A DNA stretch of 63,715 nucleotides. Source: an uncultured virus (IMG/VR IMGVR_UViG_3300037089_000135). Taxonomy: Duplodnaviria > Heunggongvirae > Uroviricota > Caudoviricetes. The translations under genes and the position numbers were made by a program. Below are positions 10,389 through 39,254 of the stretch, in pieces. Where the stretch lies: IMG/VR virus record IMGVR_UViG_3300037089_000135. One strand, given 5' to 3'. The first letter of the stretch is position 1, and each line of letters opens with the position of its first letter. Below the pieces are notes generated by a model. It was given only the letters and a program-made list of their open reading frames with translations, made no database searches and was not told the DNA's origin.

Positions 10389-10643
10389 CTACATACTACT
10401 CCTCGCGGCCTCGGCCATTTCGACATGAATTTCGAGGTGACATTTCGAATGCACCAGAGTTACATTCTCATCCGTATCAGGTCCACCTTGTGATACCGGA
10501 ATGATATGATGAGCTTCAATTAGTTTCCAGCTTTTCAAAGGCTCTCCGCACCTGGAGCACGTTGGATGGAAGTCCTTACGCAATTTTTCTTTTTTTATCC
10601 CTAGAAGTTCTTTCCATCTTCTCTGACGTTCACTAAGATACAT
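10389..10643 (-). CDS. small HNH endonuclease
   Basis: CxxC..HHIIP...GG...N....CH. Confidence 0.85.
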   Translation of the reverse strand: MYLSERQRRWKELLGIKKEKLRKDFHPTCSRCGEPLKSWKLIEAHHIIPVSQGGPDTDENVTLVHSKCHLEIHVEMAEAARSSM

Positions 10644-10884: not shown

Positions 10885-11247
10885 TTAATGGAACTCATCG
10901 ATGCACCAAAGCTCTGGAATATCATCACCAAGCGCCAGCATCAACCATTTAGCTACCAGTTGTCTATGGCAAAATTTGCCTGCCGGTTCATAGCAAAGTA
11001 ATACTGCATCGTGTCCAAGTTCCTCGGCTACTTGTCGGGGATCTAGCTTATCTAGGCATTCTTCATAATATCTCTTTTCGAATTCTTCTTTTGTCTTGAT
11101 TTTTCCAGTTCCATTCCATTCACAAAGTAATCTCGGACTCGGAGCCAACTTTGGATACCACCGGCCCTTCCAATTAGACGGCGGGTACCTGCATATTGCG
11201 ACTCCATTTGGCACATTTCCGTACCGTTTAAAAAAAGATGTCCTCAT
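10885..11247 (-). CDS. DUF488-family protein
   Basis: LAPS..LL, LLCYE....FCHR.LVAKWL. Confidence 0.8.
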   Translation of the reverse strand: MRTSFFKRYGNVPNGVAICRYPPSNWKGRWYPKLAPSPRLLCEWNGTGKIKTKEEFEKRYYEECLDKLDPRQVAEELGHDAVLLCYEPAGKFCHRQLVAKWLMLALGDDIPELWCIDEFH

Positions 11248-12580: not shown

Positions 12581-13735
12581 CTATCCCTTGATTACTGCCA
12601 GAGGTGTCAACTTTACCAGAGAGCCTACTAAATCAACCTGATTTGCCATTACCTCAGTGATATCTTTGTATGCGCTGCTTGCTTCATCCAGCTTATCAAC
12701 CGATCTCATATCATGGATAATGCCGAGGGCATCCAGTATTTCGATCTCTTTCTTTAGATCCAGGGTCCTCTTTGCTTCACCCCGACCCATCGTTCTTCCG
12801 GCCCCATGAGAACACGATTTAAAGCTCTGCTCATTTCCCCGGCCCTTAACTATGTAAGATGATGTACCTTGTGATCCTGGTATGACTCCAATTTGATCTC
12901 TATAAGCTGATGTAGCTCCTTTTCTGTGAATCCACATCATTTGTCCATACATCTCTTCCTGCCTAGCATAGTTATGATGAACATCGAATTCAGTCATTGC
13001 CTTTACATCTGGTATGATTGATTTCAATCCTTCTATAGCTTTCTGCATCATAAGCTCGCGGTTAGCCTTCGCGAAGTCTAGGCAATACATCATCTCATTG
13101 ATATATTCCCGGCCATATTCGCTAGTTACCGGCAAATAATCTAATTCCCAACTTGGATTTATCTGGACATCTGCATCTTTACCGTATTTAGTAGCTTCCT
13201 TTATGTAATATTCGGCTACCTTTTTGCCGAGGTTCCGGCTCCCGGAGTGAATCATAATCCAGATATGGCCGTCGTCTCCCCACTGTACTTCTATGAAGTG
13301 ATTTCCTCCTCCGAGAGTACCAACTTGATGCATTGCGCTGTCGTACTCTTGAGGTACTACATTCATTGCGCCGTATCCTTTGTATAGAGGAATCGCATTT
13401 ATATCTTTGCTGTGGGCGAATCCTACTGGCACATTAGCTTTGATATATTCAACTAACTTGATTAAATCCTCTCTGGATATATGAGGTAAGTTCGTTCGGA
13501 TCGCACGCATTCCGCAGCCGATATCTAATCCTACTGCTCCAGGGATAACTACGTTCCTGCATCCGATAACGCCGCCAATGGGCATTCCGTACCCCTGGTG
13601 ACAGTCTGCCATCATTGCTACATGATGCACCGTATACGGATGTAGGGCTAGGTGCATGGCCTGAGCCTTCGCACCGTCTTCCATATATTCAGCCCATAGC
13701 CAAATAGGGATTTTTTCAGTTTCAATCGTCTTCAT
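12581..13735 (-). CDS. rtcB: RtcB-family RNA ligase (3'-phosphate or cyclic phosphate to 5'-OH)
   Basis: DCHQGYGMPIG, DIGCG, GTLGGGNHFIE, HSGSR, HHN, HRKGAT, SHGAGR, DEA..AYK, terminal IKG; start set at MKTIE. Confidence 0.95.
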   Translation of the reverse strand: MKTIETEKIPIWLWAEYMEDGAKAQAMHLALHPYTVHHVAMMADCHQGYGMPIGGVIGCRNVVIPGAVGLDIGCGMRAIRTNLPHISREDLIKLVEYIKANVPVGFAHSKDINAIPLYKGYGAMNVVPQEYDSAMHQVGTLGGGNHFIEVQWGDDGHIWIMIHSGSRNLGKKVAEYYIKEATKYGKDADVQINPSWELDYLPVTSEYGREYINEMMYCLDFAKANRELMMQKAIEGLKSIIPDVKAMTEFDVHHNYARQEEMYGQMMWIHRKGATSAYRDQIGVIPGSQGTSSYIVKGRGNEQSFKSCSHGAGRTMGRGEAKRTLDLKKEIEILDALGIIHDMRSVDKLDEASSAYKDITEVMANQVDLVGSLVKLTPLAVIKG

Positions 13736-13736
13736 T

Positions 13737-14018
13737 TTACAATACCTCTTGAGATGTATATAGGATAGTTCCACAAGCCGGGTTCCTTGTATTTTCAGCT
13801 ATCAGCTCAATGGATGACATTTCGCGAGACGCACTAAATCCTATGCTGCATTGATCAAGGTAAGATTTGACCATCATGTAGGCTGCATCTGGATTTGTAG
13901 CTACGACGTAAGATACCTTTTGAGGATTATTTACGTCGTTTGTTCCTATAAAAGTTGTACCATCTTTTTTTACAAGAAGGGCGACAACTCTCCGCTTAGC
14001 GCAAGGGCCTTTTACCAT
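13737..14018 (-). CDS. hypothetical protein with a deaminase-like N-terminal fragment
   Basis: PCAKRRVVALLVKKDG..FIGTN resembles the start of dCMP deaminases; HAE and PCxxC absent. Confidence 0.45.
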   Translation of the reverse strand: MVKGPCAKRRVVALLVKKDGTTFIGTNDVNNPQKVSYVVATNPDAAYMMVKSYLDQCSIGFSASREMSSIELIAENTRNPACGTILYTSQEVL

Positions 14019-15158
14019 TTATACATCCCTCTTTTCGCGCGTCTCGAAAAAACCATCATGTTCTTTATGCATATTCATAAATTTTCTTGCATAAAATGGT
14101 GCAACGTGGTCATTTATTTTAAATAGTTTTGGATTTCCATGTTCATCTTTTTCATGCAGCATGGTATCCCATCTAATATAATAAATAACCGAATGGGCGC
14201 TAAATTTGTTTCTATGATCTATTTTAATAGCTTCAAGTGTTAGTTTTTCAAACGTATTCCATATATCAGGATTTTCGTTATCAAACTTATCGAATTCCTC
14301 TTGTCTCATTCTCATTTATTCTCACCTCATCTCTAATATCATATCTCATTTTGTATACTCTTTGTGTGCTGGCTCCAGTTGCCGGAAGTGATGGATATAA
14401 TATATACTGTGTAATATCTACATTCCTAATATTTACAGTTTTTCTATATTTTATGTCCCACCATAACTTATTTTTCATCTTTTCCGGGATGAACCAGTAT
14501 TTTTCCATGATCATGAATATATCAAATTTCATATGATCAAACCAACTATCGAATTCCAGATTCGTAAAAGATACTTTGATATTATCTTTTTTCGTTTCTG
14601 CCAGTACCGTGGCTGTTAATTCATACATCAAACCTTGATTTATTCGGTCCCTATATGATTCTAAAACCAAATTCTGAGCCTGAATCATATCTACATCAGG
14701 TATCAACCGGCATGATTTCCATCTAGTAGCCTCTAGCTCTACAGTGTCATAAGATATGTTTTTAAGACTATTTAAATCATTCATGTAAACTTCCTCTTGT
14801 CAAGCCATTCAAATGCGATTTTAACCGCTTCTTCCTCATCTTTAGCATCAATAGAAACATCTACATGTTCTTTAGATTCGAATATAGTCCGGACGTAAAG
14901 ATAATAATCCGTTTCTGTATATTCAGAGTATACGTCAAATTTCCAAACTGCCGGGAATCTTCTCGATTTATGTCCATGAAAGGTAGTTTCAATTTTGCAT
15001 ATGCGAGCTACTGTTGTAGTTCCTTTCCAGATAAAATGTGATACTTTTTTATGTTTTTGATTAAAATACGAATGCACAATATCTTCTTCGAATTCGCTTA
15101 TTTGTTTAAAGTACCGGCCTGATCCATCTTCAACTGAAATTAATTTTACAAATTTCAT
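14019..15158 (-). CDS. three hypothetical proteins (14019..14315, 14287..14784, 14781..15158)
   Basis: Overlapping ORFs in operon orientation. Confidence 0.6.
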
Positions 15159-16718: not shown

Positions 16719-17562
16719 TCACATCACTATGTCTTGTTTTATCTCTTTTGTTTGCTCGCGTAGCACTTTTCCACATTTACTGCATTTATATGTGGCTTTA
16801 CCATGCCTATATGATTCTAAATATAGTTCACCGTGGCAATCGCTACAATACAATTTTACTTTTGGTCTTTTTATTTGCGGCCAATCATCCATATTGATTT
16901 TTCCGACATACCATCGGATATTACTTAATTGACCACTTGGAAGAGGTTCTGCCTCCAGGTTGATTGCTGGATGGACTTTCGAGGGAAATATATTTTGAGC
17001 AACGAAATCGATAGGCTTTTCTTGATACCTTGCAATGGCCTCAGCAAATGCTTTGTTCATTGCTTTATCTTTTTCATTTATCTCTGGTCTATGATATTCT
17101 TCAACTGATATAATATCAGTAACCTCGATTTCACCTACAGCGTCACCATCAATAGGTTCATCAAATACTGCCTGTTTTGCAGTTTCAGCATCAATAGCTT
17201 CGATATATACGTTCGTGTATCCTATAACTTTAATATTTATCTTATATTCAGGCAATTGGATTCCCCTCATCATCTATTCCTACTGGTTCTGCCGATCCCT
17301 CGGCTTTGTTTCTCTCTTCCATTTCTTTAAGCTTTATCGCCCGGCCTTCTGGATCAGGATGAGACTTATATTCGTTTCTCCATTCTTTCCCCATATCATC
17401 TTTCGTAGGAAGGTTAACCTTCGTGTTTCTCACGTAAATAGCCTTCTTCTGCGATGGATCACCAAATACTTCAACGCAAATTTCGCATTTCATGTATTTC
17501 CAATTTAGTCCCGATGGTATCATGACCCCGAGCTGTTTAAGATGCTTCTCACAAACTAACAT
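16719..17562 (-). CDS. two hypothetical Zn-ribbon proteins (16719..17273, 17248..17562)
   Basis: CxxC pairs. Confidence 0.55.
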
Positions 17563-18203
17563 ATTTTATCCTCCGTATTTAACTTTCTGTTCTTATTACA
17601 CAGAATTCTATATACTTGTGCAATACTTATTCCATATTTTTTTGCAATATTTGTACGGGTTAATTTTGAAGCTCGTATTTCAATAACTTCGTTATCACGC
17701 AATTTTGCAGCCGGGTTAGATTCTCCTGGTTTCGCATGAATGCGTGCGTGATTTTTTTGAGATATAAACCTGCAATTTTCAGGTTCGTAATTTTTATTAC
17801 TGTCAATTCGATGTATTTGCATCCCCTTTTCCCATCCATTTGTTAATGCAAAATTTTTGAAATTTACATATATTTTCCATTCATCACATACTATAATTCC
17901 TTTGCCTCCATAATATTTATAAGCTTTATGTGTCGGCTGATAACATCGTGATAACATTGCTTGCCATCTAGGATAAGGAGAGCTTCTATCTTGACTATCG
18001 CCATGTATGGTTGCTGATTTTCTTTGTAGACATCCACAACTGCGAGATTTTCCAGTTACAATACTACATTTTGGTATAATCTTAAATTTACCACAGTCGC
18101 ATTGACACAACCATAGAGAATGTCTTGCATCCGATACTCCAATCTTCATTAATATTTCAAGATTGGTATATTTAAATCCTGATATATCAACGAATTTTCC
18201 CAT
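17556..18203 (-). CDS. HNH-type homing endonuclease with C-terminal HTH
   Basis: WLCQCDCG, SCGC, YGGKGI.VCDEW, HRIDSNKNYEPENC, GESNPAAKL..IAKKYGIS. Confidence 0.85.
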   Translation of the reverse strand: MGKFVDISGFKYTNLEILMKIGVSDARHSLWLCQCDCGKFKIIPKCSIVTGKSRSCGCLQRKSATIHGDSQDRSSPYPRWQAMLSRCYQPTHKAYKYYGGKGIIVCDEWKIYVNFKNFALTNGWEKGMQIHRIDSNKNYEPENCRFISQKNHARIHAKPGESNPAAKLRDNEVIEIRASKLTRTNIAKKYGISIAQVYRILCNKNRKLNTEDKIC

Positions 18204-18207
18204 ATTT

Positions 18208-18753
18208 TTACCATCCTAGATCTATATTCACACTTGGTACATGTATCGCGTATCTAACGTATTCATTCTTTTCTATAACTCGACTGGTTAAGAAGTAAGC
18301 TCCTTCAATATCGATATATGCACATCCATCTTTTTCATTTATATTATATACGATATCTTCCTCAAAAGATCTATCTTCTTTAGTTTCGTCTATTATTATA
18401 ATATTACTATCATCTTTAACTATGATAGAATTCTTGAATTTAAAAGGCCCTGACGTTCCATTTCCTTCGAATGTCCCTACTTCAACAAATTTCCATCCAT
18501 CTCGACAGATACTAAAGTCCATCTTATCAGCTCTGGATTGTGTTATTTTTATAAGAGGAATACCAAACTTACTTTTTAATTCTAAGGGGTTATTTTTTAA
18601 AATTTCTATCATACATGAACGCGGCATGTCTTTTAGGTTTTCATCAATAACTTCCGCATATATTCCTTCAAATGAATTTAATCTATCGCATAACATATCT
18701 AAATTAAGTATATTCATAGCAAAAGAATAGTGCGGACGATTTCTATTGTGCAT
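18208..18753 (-). CDS. hypothetical protein
   Basis: ORF with GGAGG RBS. Confidence 0.55.
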   Translation of the reverse strand: MHNRNRPHYSFAMNILNLDMLCDRLNSFEGIYAEVIDENLKDMPRSCMIEILKNNPLELKSKFGIPLIKITQSRADKMDFSICRDGWKFVEVGTFEGNGTSGPFKFKNSIIVKDDSNIIIIDETKEDRSFEEDIVYNINEKDGCAYIDIEGAYFLTSRVIEKNEYVRYAIHVPSVNIDLGW

Positions 18754-19545: not shown

Positions 19546-20473
19546 TTATTTCATACTCCTTTAAATTACTATAAAATAGTTGTTCACAAACTCTATACCT
19601 AACTTGCTTTCCTTCTATTTAAATCTATCTATTTCTTGGATCAGTTTCGAGTGCTCTTAGTTCTCCTTCCAAACCTTCGATTCTTTCCTGTAATCGCAAT
19701 ACCGGCCATATCACGCGCCGGGTTATTTCTTCCTTTAGCTCCGGTGAATCCCATTCATCGCGAAATGTTTCTAGGTCTTGTATTAAATCACTTTTCTTAA
19801 GGAACTCTTCACCTGGAGTCAATCCTTTATATAGTGTTGACATATTTTAAGCACCTATCTTTTGTTCATGCCCACAATTAAGGCACCTTATTACTTTTGA
19901 ACTTACTGTAGATTTTTTCGCAATAATGTTAAAAGATCGTACACCGGCTCCATATTGAGCATCTAGTTCTGGATTTTTACATCTAGCTTCACATATATAA
20001 AACATCTAAGATTCTACCTCCTCATAAACGGTATCCTCTGGATCACCGTTACCTTCGCGCATATGTCGGGTAACTCCCTCTACAAATGCTATCCGGGTCT
20101 CATCTTCAGTTTCTTCTTTACACATTTGGATCAGTCCAAAATATATTTACTATTAGTCCTACCACTATAATACCAAAGAAAGCGCCAACTATCGCTTGAA
20201 TAACATCAGGGCTTAACATTGTAATTCACTCCGGTACATCTTTTTTATCCTTAAAATCATTCATATGAGATTCAAGTATTTCCGTGTGATGTTTAAGTTC
20301 GTTAAGCATCGAGGTTTGTGCATTTCTTAAATCTGCCCATGTATTAGATCTATTTGTAAATATTCTATCTATCTCATCTATATTCCATCTAATACGTCTC
20401 GCGAAATGTTGTAATCTTTCTTTATGTTCCTCGAATTCCGGCATAATGCAAACCTCCTATAAATAAAAATGTT

Positions 20474-20947
20474 AGTATGGTGTGTTGTTACACCAAATAG
20501 TCCATATTGTACTTGTGCTGGCCTATGAATGCGTCAGATATAGTACATCAAATCTCATCATCCACAGCGAAGTTGTGCCTCTCTTCGCGTCGGCCTTCGC
20601 GCCTCCAGTCCATGAGGATAGTTTAATTCCTCTCCATATTCACCGGGCAACGCCCCGCCTAAACCCCGATAAGATACACCTCAGTTTGGTGAGCTAATGA
20701 GTTTATCTAGGGACTATCCTACATGGATATCTAGCCTGCAAGGGTAGCGCAGGTGCCAGTATGCGAAGCATACCGCAGTTTCCTCATTTATTTCCTTCAC
20801 GTTTGCTCTTTGGGTCTTTCGTTATCTGGCTAGTACGTCAGGTCGCGAATTGTGAGTATCCTTCCGGATTCCCCGGACTCCTATTCTCACATCTGCATAC
20901 GACTAACTCTTTAAAGGATAGCTACTCCTAAGCCAACCTTCCATACT
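20474..20947 (-). ncRNA. large structured RNA containing a split mimic of 23S rRNA H43-H44 (GTPase-associated centre)
   Basis: 5' AGUAUGGAAGGUUGGCUUAGGAGUAGCUAUCCUUUAAAGAGU and 3' GGUGUAACAACACACCAUACU; terminal stem AGUAUGG/CCAUACU; insert closed by UAGUC/GACUA; oligo-U follows. Confidence 0.85.
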
Positions 20948-20951
20948 GGTT

Positions 20952-21100
20952 TTCATCTTTGACACGTTCTAATATATCGCACCGTGTAACCCCACATGTA
21001 GCGCATTAAGGGACGGATTTATGCCATATTCAGTACGACTTGCTGCAATCCGCTACCTGATTCGATACCTTGTCGCCGTGTCATAACTGTTGTTGATGAA
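20952..21100 (-). ncRNA. ~150-nt multi-stem structured RNA of unknown class
   Basis: Nested stems UUCAUC/GAUGAA, UGACACG/CGUGUCA, UAUCG/CGAUA, GUAGCG/CGCUAC. Confidence 0.6.
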
Positions 21101-21229
21101 TGACGCTATCCGGGAATCGAACCCGGTTTTTGACCCACCCGTTGCAACAGGTCGTTACGGCCAACGCATGAAGCCGCAAGCATCTCGCGCGATTTGTGGT
21201 AATGCTTGGAACGCACATGCTGATAGCGA
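21101..21229 (-). ncRNA. tRNA-like RNA (acceptor stem and T arm, non-canonical middle)
   Basis: CGCUAU/AUAGCG acceptor, CCGGG-UUCGAUU-CCCGG T arm, internal GCAUG/CAUGC and CAAGCAU/AUGCUUG stems. Confidence 0.7.
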
Positions 21230-21301
21230 AATGATGTATCGCCTCCTCTTGTTAATCTCAGAGCTTCTAACATCATTAAATATTATCTCTGACTGGAGGC
21301 A

Positions 21302-21381
21302 TGGCAAGTATGGGAATCGAACCCATTAAGGCTGCCCAATCGCTTTTGAGGCGATTCCTTTATCCAATTAGGTAACTAGCC
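21302..21381 (-). tRNA. tRNA-Leu(CAA)
   Basis: GGCUAGU/ACUUGCC-A acceptor (one U-U), D arm CCU/AGG with GG, AUCGC-CUCAAAA-GCGAU, long variable region, AUGGG-UUCGAUU-CCCAU. Confidence 0.85.
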
Positions 21382-21384
21382 AAA

Positions 21385-21455
21385 TGGAGCTACTCAGAGT
21401 CGGACTGAGATCACATGGTTCCAGGCCATGTAGGATACCGCTACCCTATAGCTCC
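21385..21455 (-). tRNA. atypical tRNA, nominal anticodon UGG (Pro)
   Basis: Cloverleaf GGAGCUA/UAGCUCC-A, CAUGG-CCUGGAA-CCAUG, CUCAG-UCCGACU-CUGAG; has C33 and a UCC T loop. Confidence 0.75.
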
Positions 21456-21459
21456 TGTT

Positions 21460-21615
21460 TGCTGAGGCCCGGAGTTGAACCGGGTTCGGAGGGAGTATAC
21501 CCGCCTTAATGTTCCGCCTAAGTTTTCAAGGGTGAACCTACGACTTGGAAGGAGGAAATTCACCTGGATGTAGACTTTTCTTTTTACCGGCGTACTTCGT
21601 TAATACTACCTCAGC
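21460..21615 (-). ncRNA. 156-nt tRNA-like RNA with enlarged anticodon region
   Basis: GCUGAGG/CCUCAGC-A acceptor, D-like GUAU/GUAC, CCCGG-UUCAACU-CCGGG T arm, internal GGUGAAUUU/AGGUUCACC hairpin. Confidence 0.75.
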
Positions 21616-21639
21616 ATAATACCTTATACACACTTAATC

Positions 21640-21653
21640 TATTTAAACTTTAC
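21640..21653 (-). promoter_or_regulatory. archaeal BRE/TATA promoter of the ncRNA array
   Basis: GTAAAG-TTTAAATA ending 25 nt upstream of the first tRNA-like G at 21615. Confidence 0.7.
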
Positions 21654-21831
21654 GCCTTCTCTTAAACTGATACTGCAACTGTCGTTCCGATCTGCTTTGT
21701 TATAATCTATACCGAGGAACTTCTTATATCGGCATATGCCAGTATCCTCAAATAGTTTATCCCACTTTTTGCAGTTACCACAAATATGAGCATCTGCCTT
21801 CAATACGAATGCTTCTGTTGCCATATCTCCT

Positions 21832-22941
21832 CTAACTGACCATTACATCTGCTTTAGTTTGCGCTTTTTGATTAACCTTTCGTACTGACTCTATATAGTC
21901 CGACTCCATAATATTTAAAGCTTCCGGGTCCTTTCTAAGTCGGATCATACCGGCCTCATTTATTACCGCTTTCAATTGGGCTCCATTCATCCCACCAGTT
22001 ATTCTTGCTATCATTGATGGATCAGGGATGTTTTGCTTTCCCTTCGTATGGATCTTGAGGATGTCTATTCTCGCGGCCTCATTTGGAAGGGGAATTTCGA
22101 TCAACCTATCAAACCGGCCCGGCCTGAGTATAGCGGGGTCCAGGATATCAATTCGGTTTGTTGCTGCGATAATTTTAATATTGCCTCTTGCTCTGAATCC
22201 ATCCATTTCTGCCAAGAGCTGCATCATGGTTCTGTTAACCTCCGCGCTTCCGGTTGTACCATCGTTAGTGCGGACGGCTGCAAGAGCATCAATCTCATCA
22301 ATGAATATGATGCATGGAGCTTTGTCGCGAGCCATCTGAAATACGTCGCGAACCATCTTTGCGCCTTCGCCTATGTATTTTTGCACTACTTCCGGTGCTG
22401 CTAAATGAATGAAGGATACGTTAGTGGCATTAGCTACGGCTTTAGCTAATAATGTCTTACCTGTTCCTGGAGGCCCATAGAGTAGAACACCCTTTGGCGG
22501 CTCAATTCCTAACCGGCTAAATCTCTCCGGGTATAGTAACGGAAGTTCAACGGCTTCCTTAAGCTCTATAATCTGTGAGTCCAGTCCTCCAATCTCGGAG
22601 AATTGCGCTTCCGGCTTTGATATCATTTCCATTACTCGGACTCTTGAATCACTTCCGGTTTCCAGAATGTCTATGATACCGAGGTCTGTATTTATAACAA
22701 CCATGCAACCTGGATGAATTTTATTCTTAATTGCTTCGTTATGACATTTCACGGCATACTCCATATTATTGCCATGCTGTCGTATTACAATATATTCTAA
22801 ACCTACATCAACCACATCCGCTACTAAGAACGGTGGATTTTGCAAAATTGCAAGCTTACCGAATTGCATCACGATTAGTTCTATCTTTTCCTTTGTAGAT
22901 AGTGCTTCTATATCAGTTAGCGTAGATTGATCAATTTCCAT
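21832..22941 (-). CDS. pan: proteasome-activating nucleotidase (PAN)-like AAA+ ATPase
   Basis: OB domain, IGGL..QI.ELKEAVELPL, GIEPPKGVLLYGPPGTGKT, KYIGEG, IFIDEID, EVNRTMMQLLAEMDGF, ATNR.D.LDPAILRPGRFDR. Confidence 0.93.
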   Translation of the reverse strand: MEIDQSTLTDIEALSTKEKIELIVMQFGKLAILQNPPFLVADVVDVGLEYIVIRQHGNNMEYAVKCHNEAIKNKIHPGCMVVINTDLGIIDILETGSDSRVRVMEMISKPEAQFSEIGGLDSQIIELKEAVELPLLYPERFSRLGIEPPKGVLLYGPPGTGKTLLAKAVANATNVSFIHLAAPEVVQKYIGEGAKMVRDVFQMARDKAPCIIFIDEIDALAAVRTNDGTTGSAEVNRTMMQLLAEMDGFRARGNIKIIAATNRIDILDPAILRPGRFDRLIEIPLPNEAARIDILKIHTKGKQNIPDPSMIARITGGMNGAQLKAVINEAGMIRLRKDPEALNIMESDYIESVRKVNQKAQTKADVMVS

Positions 22942-23544
22942 TTACATGTCTCCGTAAAATGCTTTGCGTTCTTCTTGTATTCTTTGGTTATCCCACTCGA
23001 TATATGAAAGTACTGCGAACATCATTAAAGCTACTTCACGTTCGGCACCAACGAAATGCTGATTTATGAAGTCTACTCCTTTTTGTTCATCTTTAATTTT
23101 TTCTATCCGGATAAGAATGCTTTCTACTTTCTCATCGGATACACCCATAATTTTATGAAATGATGCAACCATTAGTATCACCCATCGTATGTAATATCAA
23201 GTTCTTCATACATCGTAACTTTATGCATGATATCGCAAAGTGCCGCTATCATTTTGTAGTTTATATCCTTTTCGTGTTTAGGTTGAAGTCTTCGCTCAGC
23301 TTCTTCTTTTTTATATTTTGCGCACGTTTCTCGAATTTTGTCATAAATGCTATATATCATAAAAATTTACTCCTTTTTTGGAGCAGTGCATATATGAGCG
23401 ATAGCGTTTTTCACATCTTGTGGTAGCATTGACAAGGGTATTCCTAGCTTCTTTGCCATATCTGCCATTGCGTCTTCCGGGCATAACTTATCGTTTACCT
23501 GAGCCATTTAATATCCATCCTTCAATTTTTTAACCTATTATTAT

Positions 23545-23719
23545 CGCAGGTCGATTCTAGTTCTCGGCCATTTATCGACGCGGGCGCTCGCCGCTTCTCA
23601 AATCGCCGCCAATTATTATTAGGGGTAGGCATGTCGGAGAGCGACTCCGGCCATGTTATCTAAAAGGGGCCTCCGGTTTACCGCGAATAAGCCGGGTTCC
23701 TTTTAGTTTGCCCTACAAC
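23545..23719. ncRNA. GC-rich intergenic structured element (three-way junction plus upstream hairpin)
   Basis: TCGGAG/CTCCGG, CTAAAAGGGG/TTCCTTTTAG, CCGGTTTA/TAAGCCGG, GTCGAT/ATCGAC stems; no long ORF. Confidence 0.55.
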
Positions 23720-23755
23720 TTAACATTATAGCTTATACTATTTATAACTTTGCAT

Positions 23756-24217
23756 CTACAAGGTCTTCCATTTCTTTCCGTTACATATTTTACTTATATG
23801 TGGATAAGAAACTCCAAAGCTTTGCGCGATCTCTTTTAACAGATATCCATACATTCGCATTTCTTTTATTTTAATAATATTATCTTTATTTAATTTTACT
23901 GATCCATGCGCTTCTCCGCTATTATCGACGGCCCTTCCTTTAGTATACATATCATGTATATTATCTTTTTGCGTGCCTAAGAACAAATGATTTGGGTTGA
24001 CGCATTTCGGATTATCGCACCTATGACATACGATCATTCCATTTACAATTTCTGTAATATAAATTTCATATGAGAGGCGGTGGGCGAGAATTATCTTCCC
24101 GCCGTATTTGAATACCCCATATCCGTTATTACATGCGCCTTGCCAATTCCAGCATTTAGGTGTTTTCTGAAATTTGGATTCAAATCTTTGTAATATTACT
24201 GGACTTACAAGTTTCAT
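23756..24217 (-). CDS. HNH homing endonuclease (HNH_3-like) with HTH
   Basis: CWNW.G...GYG, AHRLSY, VCHRCDNPKCVNPNHL.LGT..DN. Confidence 0.9.
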   Translation of the reverse strand: MKLVSPVILQRFESKFQKTPKCWNWQGACNNGYGVFKYGGKIILAHRLSYEIYITEIVNGMIVCHRCDNPKCVNPNHLFLGTQKDNIHDMYTKGRAVDNSGEAHGSVKLNKDNIIKIKEMRMYGYLLKEIAQSFGVSYPHISKICNGKKWKTL

Positions 24218-24222
24218 GGTTT

Positions 24223-27036
24223 CTAACTGGATGCCTGACTATTTAAGGCTTTTCCTCTGACCGGGCATTCCGCCCCACAGCTTTCACAGAACTCGAATAG
24301 CCCAAATACTGTATCAACGCAGCCGTATATGATTCCATCTTTGTTATATACCTCATTCAATATCTCATCTTCGTCGTCTAATACTTCAATTCTAAACATC
24401 TTTTTCACTCTCCGGGTAATCTCATTCCTATAGCGATCTGACTTTCCATATCTTGAATAGCGATTCTCATCTTCTTGATATCGATCATTTTATGGTCTAC
24501 ATTTCTATATAGTTTCGCGATGTGATTCATATCGCTTTGTACTGAATCCTTTTGCCTTTCTATATTCTTTTTTAGTATTCCTATCTCTATTTGTAATGAG
24601 CTGTCATATACCGGCTTCTGAAATTCATCACTCATAAAGATCGCGAGGGTACAATCTCCATTAGGAGCTTCTTTCGCTCTTTGCTTATAGTGCTCATGTA
24701 TCCAACTATTCCAGCTCTTTTTCTTTCTCATACGTCTCACCAATATTCTGTGATCAAATAATTACCTTCTGGCAGAACATCATTATTTACCATATCTTGA
24801 AGTAGATATCGTGATATGCAACAATACTCACCTGTATCTCTAAATTCTTGTACTACCTCCGGGAATAGTAGCTCGTTTTTCTTTACTTCGTATAAGTGAT
24901 TACTATCGTTTGATACTTCTTCTGATGCAGCGAATTCAAAATCTTGATTATAAGTTTTTTTAACTAGATCATCGAATTCTGATGCATTTATTTTAAAAAT
25001 TGATATTTGCTCCATGAAAACCTCCTAAGATGGATCTACGTCGTCGCGATCTATCAATCTGCTCATGGCATCTTCTAATATCTCCATAATCTCACTACCT
25101 GCCTCATTCATATGCAGCGTATCGAGGATTTGAGTATGCATCCTGTCCAGGGCTTCATAAACATCCTGAGCACAATTTGCGTCTACGCAAAATCCTTCGA
25201 TTCCTAAAAAGTCATTTACCGGCATCAGAAATCAAATCCAAAATTAATCTTGATCTGAGCGCATAAGTCTTCGAATGCATTTCGGGACCCTTCCAGTATT
25301 GTAGATCCGCCAGATTGCATTACTCGAATTATATCACCACCAGATTGATCAGGGGTGATAATTACCATAGCTCGTACTTTTGATTTACCGTCATCTCCGA
25401 TACAATTATTAAATTTTATCATTTTCATTCCTCTGGTCTTTTATATCCATCTAGTTCGCGATACCCCAAATTGTTAAACCAATCTACACCAAATCTTTGT
25501 TTTAGTAACCAAATTTCGTCTTTTGTTAGATCTTCTGGTAATAATCCTCCTGTCATATTAAGCAGCAAATTATTCGTTTTATCAGTTAGGTCTATGTTTT
25601 TAAGGTTAACCACTTGCGTTCTTGTAGCTCTTGCAGCTCCAATCATTTTCATATCTGATGTCATTGTCACCTCAAAAAAGTTTTAATCCGGATGAATCTG
25701 ATTTATGAGATTCTCCAGAATATTTGGTATACTACGTTCGCCCTCGGCATTATCCGCTATGTCCATTAAATCATGTTCGGGGCCTTCATCCATCTTCCGG
25801 GCAGTTATTGCGACTTTTGTTGTATCCGGAATAACCTCACATGTTAGAATGAGGTCTTCTGCCTTATTTGCGATCTCCTCGCTTGATACCTTTATGAGTA
25901 CTCTTCTTCTTCTTCCGCTTACCGTTACATACTGTATTACTTCAACTTCATCAGGGTTTCTTGGATCACCATGAAATAGATCTTGGTCAAATTCCCGGCC
26001 ATCTTTTGCCCACTCTTGAATCGGTTCCTCATCGTGATTGAGGATTATATCAACGCCGCTATTGCTTTCCATTTACTATCTCCTAACTCATTTGGCTCGC
26101 GAGCACAAGTTTTTCTGCCAATGTCATTTCAGTATTATCTAATAGATACTGAAGTCCATCACTTTGCTTTGGATCAGTTATACCGGCTTTCGTCAGGTCT
26201 TCAATCATTTTGTCATACAATTCTTTCCCTCTTTTGAACGGTACATCAATTTTAACTGCTGCCATATATTCATTCTCCTTTATTAACTACTTATTATATT
26301 GACCTCTTATTTTAAACTTTTATTTCGTTCATTGATAATTGCACATAAAACATGATTAAAATTGAAATTTGGGCAAATGAAAGGATAAGGTGCTGATTTT
26401 AGCAACCTTTGCATCCTGGACAACTGAGCTTACGGATTTCTTTAGCATCTGTGATTTTCATTCTTAGTATGCTTAGCGCACATGTTCCGATTTGCCTTCG
26501 ATCATCGCACCCGGATAATGTACTATACTTGCATCGTGACGCATATAGGAATGCTCCGAGAGACATCACTTTTTGAAGTCTATGAAACTGCATGTGTGTG
26601 TATTGCTCTTTGAAATGAGCATCAAATACCTTTTGATACTTAGATTTATGGATTCTCATGTTTAGCACCTTATCTCATATAGTATGTCGCGCATTTTTCT
26701 GAGCTGATCCAGGGTATAGTTATCTGTATAGTTCCTGGACTGGAGGAAATCAGATAGTTCTTTTCTTTCAATTTTGTCGCGAATGTCCTGAGTCAAAGGC
26801 CCGATTCTCTGCCTGTAGTGGTCAACAGCGGTTCGCTCAGTAAGTAGATCCTTATTATATATCGCCTCTTTACCTTTTACTATTACCGCGATATTGCCGG
26901 AGGGTGTTATTCTTGTGACCTCACCGATAAAGGTGTCTCTTCTTCCAAGTCCACAATATACCGCTACTTCCATACCGGGCACCAGTCCGGCAACCCATTC
27001 GTCTCCATTTAGAATCATCATTCGAGTTTTCCTCAA
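24223..27036 (-). CDS. cluster of about ten small early hypothetical genes
   Basis: Tightly packed ORFs with GGAGG/GGTGA RBS. Confidence 0.55.
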
Positions 27037-27055
27037 GCATACCTACATGCTGATC

Positions 27056-27091
27056 ATATAAAAGCCTTTCTATGTGCATAAGATTTAAATA
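27056..27091. promoter_or_regulatory. divergent TATA boxes
   Basis: TTTAAATA (27084-27091, +) 24 nt before ATG 27115; TTTTATAT (27063-27056, -) at the strand switch. Confidence 0.6.
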
Positions 27092-27114
27092 CTATGGGAC
27101 CTCAATGAGTCCTT

Positions 27115-27867
27115 ATGAAATATCTTGGATATGGATTTAATCGGATAACGGATAAGAATGCTATCCGAGGGACCCTTGATGTTTACATGATGCAGAAAGA
27201 TAAATTGGATTCTAAGTTCGTATCTTCTGTTTTCATAACATCCAAGAACGGTATATATGTATGCGTTAACGTATCGTCAGCGGTTACTACATACGATAAG
27301 TATGGAATCGAGCACAAGAAATATTCATTTGCGTGGTGCGATGAAAAACATGGGAGACCGTGCTTAACCGCGTGGCTTGATGATATTGGATATATCGAAA
27401 CCATGTACCCGGCCTTGGATAGATTCGACTACAAGAGGAATCCGGGAATGCCCAAACCATCAGATAATGTGTTGGAGATGCTTAAAGAGGGAGGATTTTA
27501 TGTGAAGCCTACTGACGAAGTGATAAATATAGCTAAAAAAATGGCTAATAAATCTACTATGAAATATAAACTTGCAGCGGTAATATATGATAATGATGGT
27601 AATATATTGGGAAGGGGATATAACAAAAGGTTGAAAGACAGATCCGGAAAACCGGCAACGGTTAAATTCGGAATACCTACGTTTTCCATTCATGCTGAAA
27701 TAGCATGTATTATGTGGGCTATTAAGAAGTTTGGTATTAACCAGATTACAAACCAAAATATATATATTCATAGATCGAATAACAAGATTGCAAAACCATG
27801 TGATTGCTGTCAAAGTGTAATTGACATGCTTAAATTACATATATACTATTCTAATGAGGTGAATTAA
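27115..27867 (+). CDS. cytidine/dCMP deaminase-fold protein with unknown N-terminal domain
   Basis: LAAVI..GRGYN, HAE, PCDCC Zn-binding motifs. Confidence 0.85.
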   Translation: MKYLGYGFNRITDKNAIRGTLDVYMMQKDKLDSKFVSSVFITSKNGIYVCVNVSSAVTTYDKYGIEHKKYSFAWCDEKHGRPCLTAWLDDIGYIETMYPALDRFDYKRNPGMPKPSDNVLEMLKEGGFYVKPTDEVINIAKKMANKSTMKYKLAAVIYDNDGNILGRGYNKRLKDRSGKPATVKFGIPTFSIHAEIACIMWAIKKFGINQITNQNIYIHRSNNKIAKPCDCCQSVIDMLKLHIYYSNEVN

Positions 27868-28544
27868 ATGGCACAAAAATCAACTAATAAGAAGCCGGGC
27901 TATAAGCCAAGGCGATCCAGATCTCCTAAAAAGGATATATCTACAAAAGATACTCGCGAATTCAAGTTAGCATTTACAATGAAGGAAAAAGGTCTTCATG
28001 ATACCATGAACATAGCCTTCGTCGCGAATGTCAAAACCAAGATGTATAATGGAATGTGGTTCGCGTGGGATGATTTTTATCTAGGTATCGGGGAATCAAT
28101 TCGCGAAGCTATGGCTGAATATACAGCGGATAGGTTAGGAGTTATAGGCTACATTGAGAGAGCAAACAATAAGGAGCTTTTCCATTTTGCTCAGAAGAAC
28201 AATGGCAATTCTGGATATCGTATCGAGAAAGAAGGTCCGGAGACTGATGCAGTATGAAAATAAGCGATGTTAAAAATCTATGGCAATCTGATGGATATAC
28301 CTTACATCTATTATTTTTGCATAGAGCCGAAAGCTCAATATGGTATCTATATGTTACTGAGTTTTGTTATGAGATGTATGAATATCGTAGGCACTTTGGA
28401 ATAATTACTGAAGTGGATGCAAAATCTGGAGATGTTATTAGATCCAGGGTTCTGGAGTATGATAAATCTTCATATTCACCGGCTGAAGAAATGAAGCATC
28501 AAGTATTTAATATCATAAATACTAAGTGGGGAATACTCAAATGA
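27868..28544 (+). CDS. two hypothetical proteins (27868..28257, 28254..28544)
   Basis: Coupled ORFs. Confidence 0.55.
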
Positions 28545-28837
28545 TGATAGCATTTGTAGCAAAGTCTGTTGAAAGTATTTGTGGTAATTGTGAGCATTGG
28601 TACAAAAATTTTGGAAGACAATCACTTTATGGAACTTGCGAAGTTGATGGCGATATTCAGCAATATGCTCATAATTGCTCTTGTGATATAGATGCATGGG
28701 GATAAATATGGGACAATTTACAGTGTATACGTTGTGGCGGGCCGATGAAGGCCCAATACCAGAGGGATGGACTGAAGTACCACCACCTACTAAAGATCAA
28801 TTAAGAAAATTCAAATAGAACTTGTACCCGATTAATT

Positions 28838-29581
28838 GTGGATGCGAAAATAATGGTATTGATTCAAGGGGATGAAAGACAAAAGCTTCTAGGGCGGGGA
28901 TGTTATGGACATATTCCTCATGTCCTCGGCTCCAGATTGGGCTCCGGGGATCACCACATTTCACCCGGACAGAGTGATATTTGCACCAAGAAGACAAGGG
29001 ACTCCAGGGACCTAGTTATAATCTCCGAGAAGCTCGATGGTAGCTCTGTAGCCGTCGCTATGCATGAAGGCTTGATATATGCCCTCACGCGCTCCGGGTA
29101 CCCGGCACATACCTCTAGGTGGCCTCAGCATCGATGGTTTGATAGATGGGTTCATGAAAGGGAGTATGTATTTGACTTCCTGGAGGAAGGTGAACGTGTT
29201 TGTGGTGAGTGGTTAGCTCAGGCCCACGGTACGAAATACGCCCTGGAGCATATACCCTTCGTACCTTTCGACATTTTGCGAGCTGGAGGACGGGCTTCAT
29301 ATGAGGAATTTAATACAAGGTTGCCTGAAATATTCCCTAGACCTTACATTTTGTCGATGGGATACCCCATGAGTATAGAAGAAATAGAAAAAAAGTTAGG
29401 CCCATATGGACATCATGGAGCTTTAGAAATGGCCGAGGGCGTGATTTTTAAGGTCGAAAGAGATGGCATTTTTGATTTTAATGCCAAATATGTTAGACCT
29501 AATAAAAAAGTAGGCCAATATCTCGGAGAAGATAAAGATCCTATATATAATTGGATGCCTGGAGGTGGAAGAAGTTGGTGA
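28838..29581 (+). CDS. ATP-dependent RNA ligase (Rnl2-like nucleotidyltransferase domain)
   Basis: Motifs I EKLDGS, III GEWL, IIIa FVPFDI, IV EGVIFK, V AKYV; no OB domain. Confidence 0.85.
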   Translation: MDAKIMVLIQGDERQKLLGRGCYGHIPHVLGSRLGSGDHHISPGQSDICTKKTRDSRDLVIISEKLDGSSVAVAMHEGLIYALTRSGYPAHTSRWPQHRWFDRWVHEREYVFDFLEEGERVCGEWLAQAHGTKYALEHIPFVPFDILRAGGRASYEEFNTRLPEIFPRPYILSMGYPMSIEEIEKKLGPYGHHGALEMAEGVIFKVERDGIFDFNAKYVRPNKKVGQYLGEDKDPIYNWMPGGGRSW

Positions 29582-30096
29582 ATATATTAATTTCAAAAGA
29601 TAAAATTGCACTCGTTGATGATATAGATAGCGATTTATTACAGTTTAAATGGTATGCTTCAAAAAGTGGTAAAAATTGCATATTGATTTATGCTGTACGA
29701 AGTATTTATATAGATGTGCATACAACTAAACATGTAAAAATGCATCGTACCATCATGGAACGGAAACTAGGTAGAACTCTATTAAAAGATGAATTGATAG
29801 ATCATATAAACCACGATGGATTAGATAATCGACGTAAAAACTTACGATTGGCATCTCATCTTGATAATGTTAGATATCATAGAAAAGGTGAATGTGCTAC
29901 ATCTAAATATATAGGAGTGTATTGGAGTAAGGATCATAATCGATGGGTATCCAGAATTCATGTAAATAAAAAAATAATCCATCTTGGATACTTTAGAAAT
30001 GAAGATGATGCTGCCATAGCTTATAATGAAGCGGCGGATAAATACTTTAAAAAATTCGCGAATTTGAATGATGTAGATTGTTATGGAAAAATTTGA
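29551..30096 (+). CDS. HNH-AP2 endonuclease
   Basis: MHR.IM, DHINHDGLDNRRKNLR, SKYIGV.W, LGYF..E..AA.AYN. Confidence 0.9.
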   Translation: MDAWRWKKLVNILISKDKIALVDDIDSDLLQFKWYASKSGKNCILIYAVRSIYIDVHTTKHVKMHRTIMERKLGRTLLKDELIDHINHDGLDNRRKNLRLASHLDNVRYHRKGECATSKYIGVYWSKDHNRWVSRIHVNKKIIHLGYFRNEDDAAIAYNEAADKYFKKFANLNDVDCYGKI

Positions 30097-30385
30097 GGTG
30101 TTGAAGATATGAAGATCGGACTAAAAACATATGAAATCGAGATAACTGATACGAACGTAGAGAATAGGGCCTCTTTGCTCGCGTATAGAGATAATGTAGA
30201 ACCTTGTCCAGTGGTAGACACCGGCTATTATTCAGGTCTTACGTTTGGAGTCAAGCCCTGCGCTACCTTCGGTAAACCTGGATCTACATTAGATTCGCCG
30301 TTTGACTGAAAAAAAAAATTAAGATAGTTGAAATTCTCTATAAAAAAATCCGCCCTCGATGATGAGTCGAGAGCGTACTATTTTT

Positions 30386-31825
30386 CTAAGGATATGTTAT
30401 ATTTACAGTTACCGTACCGGGTTCTATTCTTTGATCAGCTTCCATAGTAATAATACCACCGTTTTGGTTGATGCTTGTGCTATTGCCGTATATCGTACAT
30501 GATTGAATTGAATCAATACCAACAAAGAACCTAGATGTTATGAAATCGGAAAATATGTTTTTATTTAAGTCACTATATTCTATAGCTTCTCCTATTCTGT
30601 AACTATTTAGGAATGTATATATTGATGCTTCAATATTAGGTTTTAGATTCATTTCAGGAGTTTCATCTGCAATTATATTTATTACACCAGATATATATGA
30701 TTTTCTTGGTAGAGTATATAAATATGGATATATTCCCATTCCAATGAGGAAATCAAATGATCCACTACCAATATAGATTATATCAGTGATTTCAATAGCC
30801 CTATCAGTTGCAGGGGATAATGTTACTTTATATCCAGTTCCTCTTTGTGTTCCGCGAGGAATTTCAACGTTTGTTGTTTGTGCAAGGCCATTTGTATTTA
30901 TATAATGAATAACCATGTTAGTATCGGTGCTTACATGATTGCGGGGCCTGACCCATATATTTCCTCCTTTGGAAATGTCTATAGAACTTGATACAGATCC
31001 AGATACAATCGTTGCTGCCAATACGCCGCTACAAATAATACCGGCTGCTATATTTTCTTGTAGACAGTTCATAATTTCAATGGAATTATTTTCAATACCA
31101 CCACTATAATCTACAATTACTTCTATATCTCCGGGATTTGCAGTATACACATGACATTCTGCTACATCTTGTAAAGCTTGAACATGCTTTTCAATTAACT
31201 GTGTGGTAGAAGTTCCAGTGGTTGACCATGCATAAATATACCTATTTCTTAGATCTGTATCACTCTCTGCATTAGTTCCTCCAGAGAATTCATAATTATT
31301 AATTACAGATGTAACTTGATCTATATTGTATTCAATAGAAGAAATAGCTCCGCCCGGTACATTGCTGGATAGTCCAGGATTTACAGATTGTGCTCCTACT
31401 GTAGTACTGTATTGATTAATAGCAATAGTTCCGGTTTCAGTAGTTTCGAACTCTACGATAGCTCCATTTTGTCCTATAGCATCTATTTTTGTGGCTATAG
31501 GGATTGTTATAACAGATATTGCCGGAAACTCTGTAGAAAATGTTACTGATCCTATTGCTTTATCTCCTGGCAATCGGCCTTCAGGCAAACGATCTCTAAC
31601 TCGCTCATCTAATTTATCTCCGGATGCTTTGAATATTGAAAGATCGTTGGATTTTTGCTCGATTCTTTTATATACTAAAACGTCCTGAATAGCAACCGAT
31701 TCATTAAGAACGCTTAACATAGAAAGGGGAGAAAAGTTTTTTATTAGTGGATGCTTATTTATGATGAAAGTTTTCATAGAATACATTATTTCTTCTTCTG
31801 TTGGAATGTCAATTATTTCTGCCAT
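30386..31825 (-). CDS. baseplate J/gp47-like wedge protein
   Basis: ASGDKLD, A.GSVTF, PG.SSNV, GGTNAESDTDLRNR. Confidence 0.88.
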   Translation of the reverse strand: MAEIIDIPTEEEIMYSMKTFIINKHPLIKNFSPLSMLSVLNESVAIQDVLVYKRIEQKSNDLSIFKASGDKLDERVRDRLPEGRLPGDKAIGSVTFSTEFPAISVITIPIATKIDAIGQNGAIVEFETTETGTIAINQYSTTVGAQSVNPGLSSNVPGGAISSIEYNIDQVTSVINNYEFSGGTNAESDTDLRNRYIYAWSTTGTSTTQLIEKHVQALQDVAECHVYTANPGDIEVIVDYSGGIENNSIEIMNCLQENIAAGIICSGVLAATIVSGSVSSSIDISKGGNIWVRPRNHVSTDTNMVIHYINTNGLAQTTNVEIPRGTQRGTGYKVTLSPATDRAIEITDIIYIGSGSFDFLIGMGIYPYLYTLPRKSYISGVINIIADETPEMNLKPNIEASIYTFLNSYRIGEAIEYSDLNKNIFSDFITSRFFVGIDSIQSCTIYGNSTSINQNGGIITMEADQRIEPGTVTVNITYP

Positions 31826-31840
31826 TTTATGTTCACCGTC

Positions 31841-32293
31841 CTAAAATACTGCATGAAGGATATTATCAAGAGTACTTGATATGTTCATTAAGCTCTTTGC
31901 ATTAAATAAGAAATTGATATTATCGACTGCTAATAATGTGTATATGTTTACTTTATAAGCATCTTCTTCAGACAGTTCACAAGTTACCGATTTTCCTTTC
32001 ATTTCGGGGAAATATGCTTGCAAATCTGCATAAATATCTTGAGACATTTTACGCATTTCAGTACTTACATTCTTTTCATGTAGGTAATCGTATTCCGCAC
32101 ATCCCAACAGTGGATTTAATCTTTCTCCTTTTGGAGTTGCTCGATACATTACAAATCGTTGCCTTAGTTCAAGATCTCCAGTGCAAATTGCGAGATCACC
32201 ATCTGGAGTAAGAAGTATATCCAGTGCGCTATGACAGTTGGCTCTGCCATAACTTAAATCCATGTTTGTTAAAATATCCCACATCGGCTGCAT
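31841..32293 (-). CDS. gp25/GPW-like baseplate protein
   Basis: DGDL..., TPKGER..P..G; position next to baseplate J. Confidence 0.7.
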   Translation of the reverse strand: MQPMWDILTNMDLSYGRANCHSALDILLTPDGDLAICTGDLELRQRFVMYRATPKGERLNPLLGCAEYDYLHEKNVSTEMRKMSQDIYADLQAYFPEMKGKSVTCELSEEDAYKVNIYTLLAVDNINFLFNAKSLMNISSTLDNILHAVF

Positions 32294-34152: not shown

Positions 34153-34338
34153 CTATACGCATTATTTTTTACGAACTCATCTGATAGTTTAACCCAATTT
34201 ACGTTTTGCCCATTTCTAGGTATATGTTGTGCCATCCAGAAACTTCCATTTCTAAAAATGATATTTTCGTTTGATACTATAGACATTGCATCTACAAATT
34301 GATCAAATGTTATACCTTTATCATTTATATCTTTCTGC

Positions 34339-36410: not shown

Positions 36411-36424
36411 TAAATCTACCTCTT

Positions 36425-39220: not shown

Positions 39221-39254
39221 GTAATTACCTCATAAAAATTTAAAAAATTAAGAG

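Follow-up and report, generated by a model that had tools for sequence, protein, structure and literature searches.

Does the open reading frame (ORF) at positions 21832-22941 (minus strand) of the uncultured-virus record IMGVR_UViG_3300037089_000135 encode a proteasomal ATPase, and if so, what would a tailed virus do with it? The whole stretch of DNA analysed, referred to below as the window, is 63,715 nt long; the original prediction, made from its letters, had placed in this ORF a virus-encoded PAN with a short coiled coil and a non-canonical tail, serving either as a host-derived unfoldase of altered specificity or as a dominant-negative subunit. In archaea, PAN takes the place that the six Rpt ATPases hold in the eukaryotic 26S proteasome. 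Profile searches, structure comparisons and a phylogenetic tree answered the first part of the question: the 369-aa product (P0001) is very probably a functional viral PAN-type unfoldase. It is a PAN homologue by descent and architecture, which scores below the curated family cut-off and lacks the tail of a hydrophobic residue (Hb), an aromatic residue and a variable residue (X) that is typical of PAN.

Identity of the protein

Pfam recognised a single AAA module in the protein (E 9e-46), followed by an AAA lid. The PAN subfamily models of NCBIfam, NF003069 and TIGR01242, gave 461.6 and 425.5 bits, compared to 283 for FtsH and 272 for CDC48, and the NF003069 match ran over residues 29-362 against positions 44-378 of the 379 in the model. 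The best relative with a single AAA domain in the PDB was the PAN of Archaeoglobus (6he8; E 5.5e-106, residues 30-360); CDC48/VAT chains scored higher in that search because their scores are sums over two AAA domains. An exhaustive search of representative sequences was likewise dominated by multi-AAA proteins with summed domain scores and was unusable for phylogeny; it yielded one of the viral relatives described below (P0158). A CDC48/VAT identity was ruled out by the presence of one AAA module instead of two tandem modules and an N-domain, and an FtsH identity by a TIGR01241 score of 283 bits against a cut-off of 600, confined to the AAA part, together with the absence of a peptidase domain in the Pfam search.

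All the landmarks of the family could be located on the minus strand. Past an NPPF hinge (residues 35-38) lies an OB-fold domain (residues 37-100; 22642..22833), with strands modelled between residues 39 and 93. The AAA+ nucleotide-binding core (residues 110-300; 22042..22614), delimited by a motif script and invariant alignment columns, contains the Walker A motif GPPGTGKT (residues 156-163; 22453-22476), the pore-1 loop KYIG (residues 188-191; 22369-22380), the Walker B motif IIFIDE (residues 211-216; 22294-22311), the pore-2 loop (22240-22272, located by script and alignment), the inter-subunit signalling (ISS) motif MDGF (residues 246-249; 22195-22206) and the arginine fingers in RPGR (residues 273-276; 22114-22125). 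The lid follows (residues 301-364; 21850..22041; Pfam AAA_lid_3), with modelled helices at 308-368. The catalytic and translocation set is complete (Walker A, Walker B, the aromatic-hydrophobic-glycine of pore-1, the arginine fingers and the ISS motif). In an alignment of 24 PANs, these motifs fall on invariant or near-invariant columns, and the hinge proline, P37, is invariant.

An AlphaFold2 (AF2) model computed from the 24-row alignment reached a mean predicted local distance difference test score (pLDDT) of 84.3 and a predicted template modelling score of 0.71. It placed a helix at residues 5-33, the OB strands, the AAA core and the lid in that order, with disorder limited to the last five residues. 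The top Foldseek matches of the model were full-length Rpt and PAN chains, aligned over 347-369 columns with TM-scores of 0.6-0.8. The PAN architecture of N-terminal coiled coil, OB domain, one AAA+ module and lid is therefore present, with a coiled coil some 40 residues shorter. The ORF is real, and its length, its motifs, the short N-terminal helix and the DVMVS end were all found where the original prediction had put them.

A short, divergent N-terminal helix

The N-terminal helix assigned by AF2 (29 residues; 22843..22929, minus strand) is a shortened coiled-coil segment. Ahead of the hinge proline the window protein has 36 residues, and the five viral sequences compared have 28-55, four of them no more than 36; among 57 cellular PANs this stretch is never shorter than 53 residues (median 75), although their N-termini were taken from longest-ORF calls and may be overestimated. 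Against an annotated 410-aa PAN of Methanothrix, the deficit of 41 residues is wholly N-terminal (36 vs 76 before the hinge proline). The start codon of the ORF is the first after the in-frame stop, so the ORF cannot be longer and its short length is no artefact of gene calling.

The helix has also diverged. Residues 1-36 are 6-20% identical to those of the other four viral sequences and of the Methanothrix PAN, and up to 26% identical to those of another cellular PAN, compared to 64-76% in the AAA core of viral and cellular relatives (73% for the Methanothrix PAN). A word-indexed search with residues 1-112 returned the query itself and nothing else. The altered substrate specificity put forward in the original prediction would fit such a shortened, very divergent helix.

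Four copies of residues 1-115 were folded together. The score was 0.44, compared to 0.00 for the best of three controls; the runs shared at least 72% of their contacts, and the partner pLDDT was at least 75. The helices paired parallel and in register (contacts 19:19, 23:23, 30:30 and 33:33), and OB-OB contacts were also formed (38-40 with 60-64). In a calibration that used two copies rather than four, 20 of 30 proteins with solved same-chain pairs scored this high, as did one of 23 with solved single-chain structures. The fold covered four copies of a would-be hexamer, and the PAN N-domain complex has already been solved, so that the result may reflect memorisation of it or likeness to it. 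Residues 1-115 are predicted to self-associate through helix pairs and OB contacts.

Cellular origin and viral relatives

Among 301 Halobacteriota genomes sampled, six, all of Methanothrix, encoded proteins with 57-59% identity to the window protein and the rest reached at most 55%; 61 Thermoplasmatota genomes reached at most 51%. A look-up of exact sequences identified the top cellular proteins as the PANs of Methanothrix thermoacetophila and a Methanothrix sp., followed by those of M. harundinacea, Methanocrinis and Methanotrichaceae. Methanothrix PANs, the closest cellular relatives recovered, are 58-59% identical to the window protein over residues 31-356. Cellular PANs such as that of M. 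thermoacetophila (WP_175265885.1 / ABK15045.1) and that of Archaeoglobus fulgidus (6he8) have the same order of coiled coil, OB, AAA and lid and the same motifs. The window protein differs from them in being virus-encoded, in its length of 369 aa compared to 404-410, in ending in MVS instead of Hb-aromatic-X, and in its lid, where a clade-specific NGAQLKA stands in place of SGA[DE]LKA. The closest cellular PANs, with 404-410 aa and the tail RMFY, differ from it in both length and tail, so that this comparison, which could have refuted the original prediction, did not do so.

A tree of 62 rows (5 viral and 57 cellular; P0158, P0326 and one duplicate were excluded) was inferred with IQ-TREE under LG+G4 in a quick search, with branches assessed by the Shimodaira-Hasegawa-like approximate likelihood ratio test (SH-aLRT). 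The five viral sequences were monophyletic (SH-aLRT 100) and lay within a 44-row clade made up of one cellular PAN paralogue group (SH-aLRT 100); the second PAN paralogues of Methanothrix and Methanoculleus were placed elsewhere in the tree. Descent from inside the PAN clade is what this topology gives, and the claim that the gene is host-derived held up. The viral branches are long, and the tree did not settle the viral placement within the 44-row clade: constraining the viruses to group with Methanotrichales cost 9.6 log-likelihood units and was not rejected (approximately unbiased test, p 0.253). Judging from these comparisons, the gene is derived from a Halobacteriota PAN, is old in the viruses and evolves fast; a donor from the Methanothrix line is possible.

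Seven clusters at 90% identity carry the window-type N-domain. Besides the window protein, they are P0055 (386 aa), P0100 (359 aa), P0115 (364 aa), P0119 (364 aa), P0158 (733 aa) and P0326 (700 aa). The first four of these are 55-61% identical to the window protein. Members of the short viral PAN-like clade resemble one another in family, short N-terminus, the NGAQLKA motif, a methionine at position -3 and monophyly; within the clade, the window protein has diverged most (end branch 0.7) and has a two-residue insertion in the lid. Since seven diverged viral lineages share the gene, its capture was not recent, and it is an old, maintained viral gene.

In P0158, which lies on a 113-kb contig, and in P0326, a LAGLIDADG intein interrupts Walker A and separates its K from its T (GPPGTGK/C...THN/T, slashes marking the intein borders). 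One of the ten proteins in the P0119 cluster, P0121, is encoded on an 85-kb IMG/VR contig (IMGVR_UViG_3300028907_000003, hereafter L001). The P-loop of the intein-free P0121 reads GPSGCGKT, that of the intein-bearing P0326 GPPGTGK/T; the GPSGCGKT allele may represent an escape from intein homing, or a homing-resistant form.

Genes that the window and L001 share include those for RtcB (58%), for a DUF488 protein (47%) and for a baseplate protein, which indicates that the two viruses are related. In both, genes for DUF488-N3a and RtcB (window 10885-11247 and 12581-13774; L001 9237-9662 and 11755-12909) lie near tRNA genes and the PAN gene, in a different order.

A tail that keeps the hydrophobic position and drops the aromatic one

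The C-terminal tail, DVMVS (residues 365-369; 21835..21849, minus strand; from the ORF and the motif script), has a methionine at position -3 and no aromatic residue at -2, so that M-V-S offers the Hb residue of the PAN tail and lacks its aromatic one. The tails of the seven viral lineages are MVS (window), MCA, MCY, MFC, MCW, MCW and MCW. Methionine occupies position -3 in all seven while the preceding ten residues vary, a sign that the tail is under constraint, and the length of the tail past the lid helix is kept at 17-18 residues. Position -2 is aromatic in one of the seven (MFC), compared to 56 of the 57 cellular PANs (34 with F, 21 with Y and one with W; the exception has S). At position -3, methionine is the commonest cellular residue (31/57). 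The tail of the window protein is the only one in the viral clade with neither a cysteine nor an aromatic residue. No tail shared with other proteins of the virus was found among 107 window ORFs, in which no four-residue ending recurs.

The HbYX motif was reportedly defined by Smith et al. in 2007. In the cellular PANs sampled here (loci L082 and L162-L228; n=57, mostly Halobacteriota), a penultimate phenylalanine outnumbers tyrosine by 34 to 21, and textbook "HbYX" therefore amounts to "Hb-aromatic-X" in these lineages. One cellular PAN paralogue group ends in MF[AGSTY]. The prediction of a non-canonical tail was borne out with two refinements: the nearest cellular PANs already have phenylalanine instead of tyrosine (RMFY), and the viral clade keeps the Hb position.

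According to PMC10349882, the hydroxyl of the tail tyrosine hydrogen-bonds to the alpha-subunit backbone in the alpha pocket. A recent claim (PMC12352868) is that the archaeal gate is opened by occupancy of the Hb pocket. Read against these statements, the missing aromatic residue suggests weaker docking of the viral protein, not necessarily none.

Gene structure and expression

The PAN gene abuts an upstream ORF of 79 aa (22942..23181, minus strand), for which no Pfam family was found. The TAA of this ORF adjoins the ATG of the PAN gene, and a Shine-Dalgarno-like GGAGA is located 8-12 nt ahead of that ATG; from this arrangement the PAN gene appears to be translationally coupled, stop to start, to the small viral ORF. 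Downstream, a cysteine-rich ORF of 61 aa, again without a Pfam family (21639..21824, minus strand), starts 7 nt past the PAN stop. It has no similarity to the ORF that follows the PAN gene of L001, and is not conserved between the two.

Three RNA libraries, each from a different study, contain contigs with pieces of the PAN gene at 99-100% identity (X12, 22140-22340; X13, 22621-22824; X16, 22228-22440). As such contigs are blind to strand and level, they give a weak hint that the gene is expressed; conversely, parts of the stretch without RNA contigs are no evidence of silence. Short pieces at 90-95% over the PAN gene in a further library, X15, continue into unlike sequence and were set aside as probably stemming from the AAA genes of other organisms.

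What the viral PAN may do

The following mechanism is proposed. A tailed archaeal virus lineage would have taken one PAN paralogue from a Halobacteriota host long ago, and the virus clade would have kept it. The window protein is predicted to form its own hexamer through parallel helix pairs and the OB ring; the hexamer would use ATP to thread proteins through its KYIG pore loops and would hand the unfolded proteins to the host 20S proteasome, docking via its free C-terminus with the methionine at -3 as the Hb residue. Because the aromatic residue is missing, docking would be weaker or gate opening altered. The short, divergent N-terminal helix would shift the choice of substrates, and the virus would in this manner redirect proteolysis during infection. 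That the protein acts on the host 20S along these lines is a tentative reading, to which we give somewhat less than an even chance. The more specific picture, in which a virus clade of methanogen-related archaea would supply its own proteasome cap, a short-coiled-coil PAN hexamer with a methionine-anchored, tyrosine-less tail, and so reprogram the host 20S, is conceivable and rather doubtful.

Several observations weigh against action on the host 20S. The aromatic residue kept by 56 of 57 cellular PANs is missing from the tail of the window protein, and given the tyrosine contacts described in PMC10349882, docking may be lost and not merely weakened; the methionine at -3 could be plain inheritance, M being the commonest cellular residue there. 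The NF003069 score of 461.6 bits does not reach the curated NCBIfam cut-off for PAN of 500 bits, a shortfall due to the missing N-terminus and to divergence. The heptad pattern of the helix is weak, with at best five of eight a/d positions hydrophobic in a scan that was not decisive. The RNA contigs over the gene may derive from DNA carry-over. As to the host, the two tRNAs encoded next to the PAN gene gave no signal (best E 0.17), and when positions 20001-40000 of the window were compared with 105 genomes of one taxonomic order (that of G106), the PAN AAA core alone matched, at 64-75%, with no spacer-like or prophage match among those listed, two candidates being scored per genome. Finally, at least one relative, L001, has a candidate partner other than the 20S, which is taken up below.

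A motor that works independently of the 20S would account for the tail in another manner. Cellular PAN has chaperone activity without 20S, and the viral protein might likewise remodel, disaggregate or unfold its targets without a peptidase, in virion assembly, in the turnover of replication complexes or in the inactivation of host factors, the tail being a relic. The loss of the penultimate aromatic residue in six of seven viral lineages, as opposed to one of 57 cellular PANs, points in this direction, as do the intact motor motifs and the absence of a peptidase partner from the 63.7 kb at hand. A useless tail, however, would be expected to drift or shorten, yet the methionine at -3 is found in seven of seven lineages and the length of 17-18 residues is kept. 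We regard this explanation as a real possibility, and on balance an unlikely one.

A second alternative is suggested by L001, which encodes, at 13789-14337 (plus strand), a 182-aa protein resembling N-terminal nucleophile (Ntn) hydrolases and starting MT... (P0122). Its best matches were the bacterial proteasome homologue BPH (5ovs, E 1.4e-6), HslV and the N-termini of proteasome beta subunits, and its gene and that of the PAN homologue share a strand and are 2.8 kb apart. The PAN-type protein could accordingly be the ATPase of a virus-encoded two-part protease and dock on a BPH- or HslV-like Ntn peptidase encoded outside the window, as HslU does on HslV. In HslUV and BPH an AAA+ ring docks by its C-terminal tails on an Ntn peptidase without alpha subunits, an arrangement that would suit the two L001 genes; moreover, the window represents part of a genome, an identical PAN protein being recorded on a 125,715-bp contig. 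The window ATPase, in contrast, is of PAN type and not of HslU type, and its MVS tail is unlike the MCW of the L001 type. The P0122 family occurs on five IMG/VR contigs, and a PAN-like gene lies within 8 kb in one of the five, L001 itself. Whereas L001 has a peptidase gene nearby, none is found near the window PAN gene: no proteasome-, HslV- or BPH-like peptidase was detected in the 63.7-kb window by phmmer (best E 0.12), no Ntn peptidase by Pfam on 93 ORFs (30 + 63), and none by a five-sequence family hidden Markov model in all six frames (best E 0.91). The ORF at 18208-18753 (181 aa), the top weak phmmer match, was rejected as an Ntn peptidase; it had no PDB match and shared a 33-residue BLAST patch with P0122. 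Because part of the genome lies outside the window, a viral peptidase partner for the window PAN is conceivable, but it is not the favoured reading, and a two-part viral protease is improbable.

The original prediction had also raised a dominant-negative subunit. Such a blocking factor would shut down host proteolysis in one of two ways, by joining host PAN subunits in mixed hexamers via the conserved OB ring or by sitting on the host 20S as a cap that leaves the gate closed. The resemblance to the Methanothrix PAN (58-59% overall, 73% in the AAA core), the invariant hinge proline and a tail with Hb and no aromatic residue are compatible with this. A poison subunit needs no motor, yet the catalytic motifs are conserved in seven diverged lineages, two of which tolerate an intein whose splicing is needed for an intact P-loop; and the pairing helix, at 6-20% identity to its relatives, argues for self-pairing. 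We consider a blocking role distinctly unlikely. A passenger gene without viral function, for which nothing specific speaks beyond the score under the family cut-off, is scarcely credible, the frame being intact and apparently translationally coupled, all motifs being kept in seven diverged lineages and pieces of the gene occurring in RNA libraries.

Genomic context of the PAN gene

The PAN gene lies 21.8 kb and 40.8 kb from the two ends of the window, amid viral genes. These include a D5-type primase (3988-5421), RtcB (12581-13774), an RNA ligase (28838-29581), baseplate J (30386-31825), a tape measure protein (36425-39220), a tail sheath (40726-42396) and an XkdF-type prohead protease (62130-63227), and further a deaminase, a Sak4-like ATPase, a cement protein and several HNH endonucleases. 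The surrounding sheath, baseplate, tape measure, primase, prohead protease and endonuclease genes support the designation "virus-encoded". No portal or terminase was seen in the window, which ends in the head module; taken with the record of the PAN protein on the longer contig, this shows that the window is part of a larger genome. It is a fragment of a tailed, myovirus-like archaeal virus.

The five HNH endonuclease genes are located at 29551-30096 (plus strand) and at 58891-59382, 17556-18203, 23756-24217 and 10389-10643 (minus strand). Two of them have DNA-binding domains of the AP2 type, and the structural module is broken up by one of the five, which suggests that homing elements are numerous in this viral genome.

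Among 50,697 phage records, the sole substantial match of the sheath was Caudoviricetes sp. vir525 (BK063673.1, L241), at 32.5% identity over 77% of the query (E 1e-47), with a similar tail module. The vir525 record gives Methanosarcinales as host and a methanogenic enrichment culture as source; across the 41 kb examined, its annotation includes no PAN gene. In IMG/VR, exact peptide patterns used to look for the window virus had no match. DNA of the window was found in peat metagenomes. With seven possible source runs excluded, four further DNA runs from four studies contained 0.48-0.96 of the sampled words.

RNA genes and a candidate circular RNA downstream

A tRNA-Pro(TGG) (21385-21455) and a tRNA-Leu(CAA) (21301-21382), both on the minus strand and called by ARAGORN and Rfam (55.2 and 52.1 bits), form a pair 376 nt downstream of the PAN stop. 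The "ncRNA array" of the original prediction can thus be upheld for these two sure tRNAs; the rest consists of tRNA-like pieces, followed by a non-coding stretch covered by RNA. The pieces, one on either side of the two tRNAs, are an element with an odd anticodon loop (21102-21176) and what may be a tRNA-Leu(TAA) containing a 76-nt intron (21459-21616), both on the minus strand, both found by relaxed ARAGORN and neither called by standard ARAGORN or Rfam.

The non-coding stretch at 20466-21098, just downstream of the tRNAs, had the highest RNA word depth in the 5 kb examined. RNA contigs from two runs of two studies (X13, peat, 2018; X16, bioreactor, 2025) join position 21098 back to 20466, with a depth of 20 in X13 and 3.3 in X16. 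This fits a candidate circular RNA of 633 nt, or a tandem or permuted form. Read on the minus strand, the stretch begins 3 nt past the tRNA-like element at 21102-21176 and ends in a T-run. It had no Rfam match and no look-alike in other loci, and folded no better than its shuffles (z -1.19). The virus that encodes this candidate also encodes RtcB and a second RNA ligase.

Novelty and significance

Genes of the FtsH, ClpX and Lon types are known from phages. As for the window protein, its best phage matches were genes annotated as FtsH in jumbo phages of Microcystis and Pseudomonas (about 43% identity, AAA core only), and among 263 matching phage records none covered 80% or more of the protein. 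The AAA+ proteostasis genes of jumbo phages likewise represent host-type AAA+ unfoldases carried by viruses; unlike the window protein, they are of bacterial type, with a fused or partner protease, and none has the coiled-coil and OB N-domain of PAN. No report of a virus-encoded PAN was found in the full-text literature, a search that did not extend to the source paper of vir525 and its supplements.

If the window protein indeed caps a proteasome, this would be the first virus to bring the regulatory ATPase of one, and a first case in which a virus of archaea gains control of proteasomal or unfoldase functions with a motor of its own. The viral PAN would also constitute a natural experiment on debated parts of the family, namely the role of the coiled coil in substrate selection and of the Hb, tyrosine and X positions of the tail. 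By keeping Hb and dropping the aromatic residue, the viral clade bears directly on the Hb-pocket claim of PMC12352868. The viral tails, together with the phenylalanine-rich tails of Halobacteriota PANs, offer ready-made variants for gate-opening assays.

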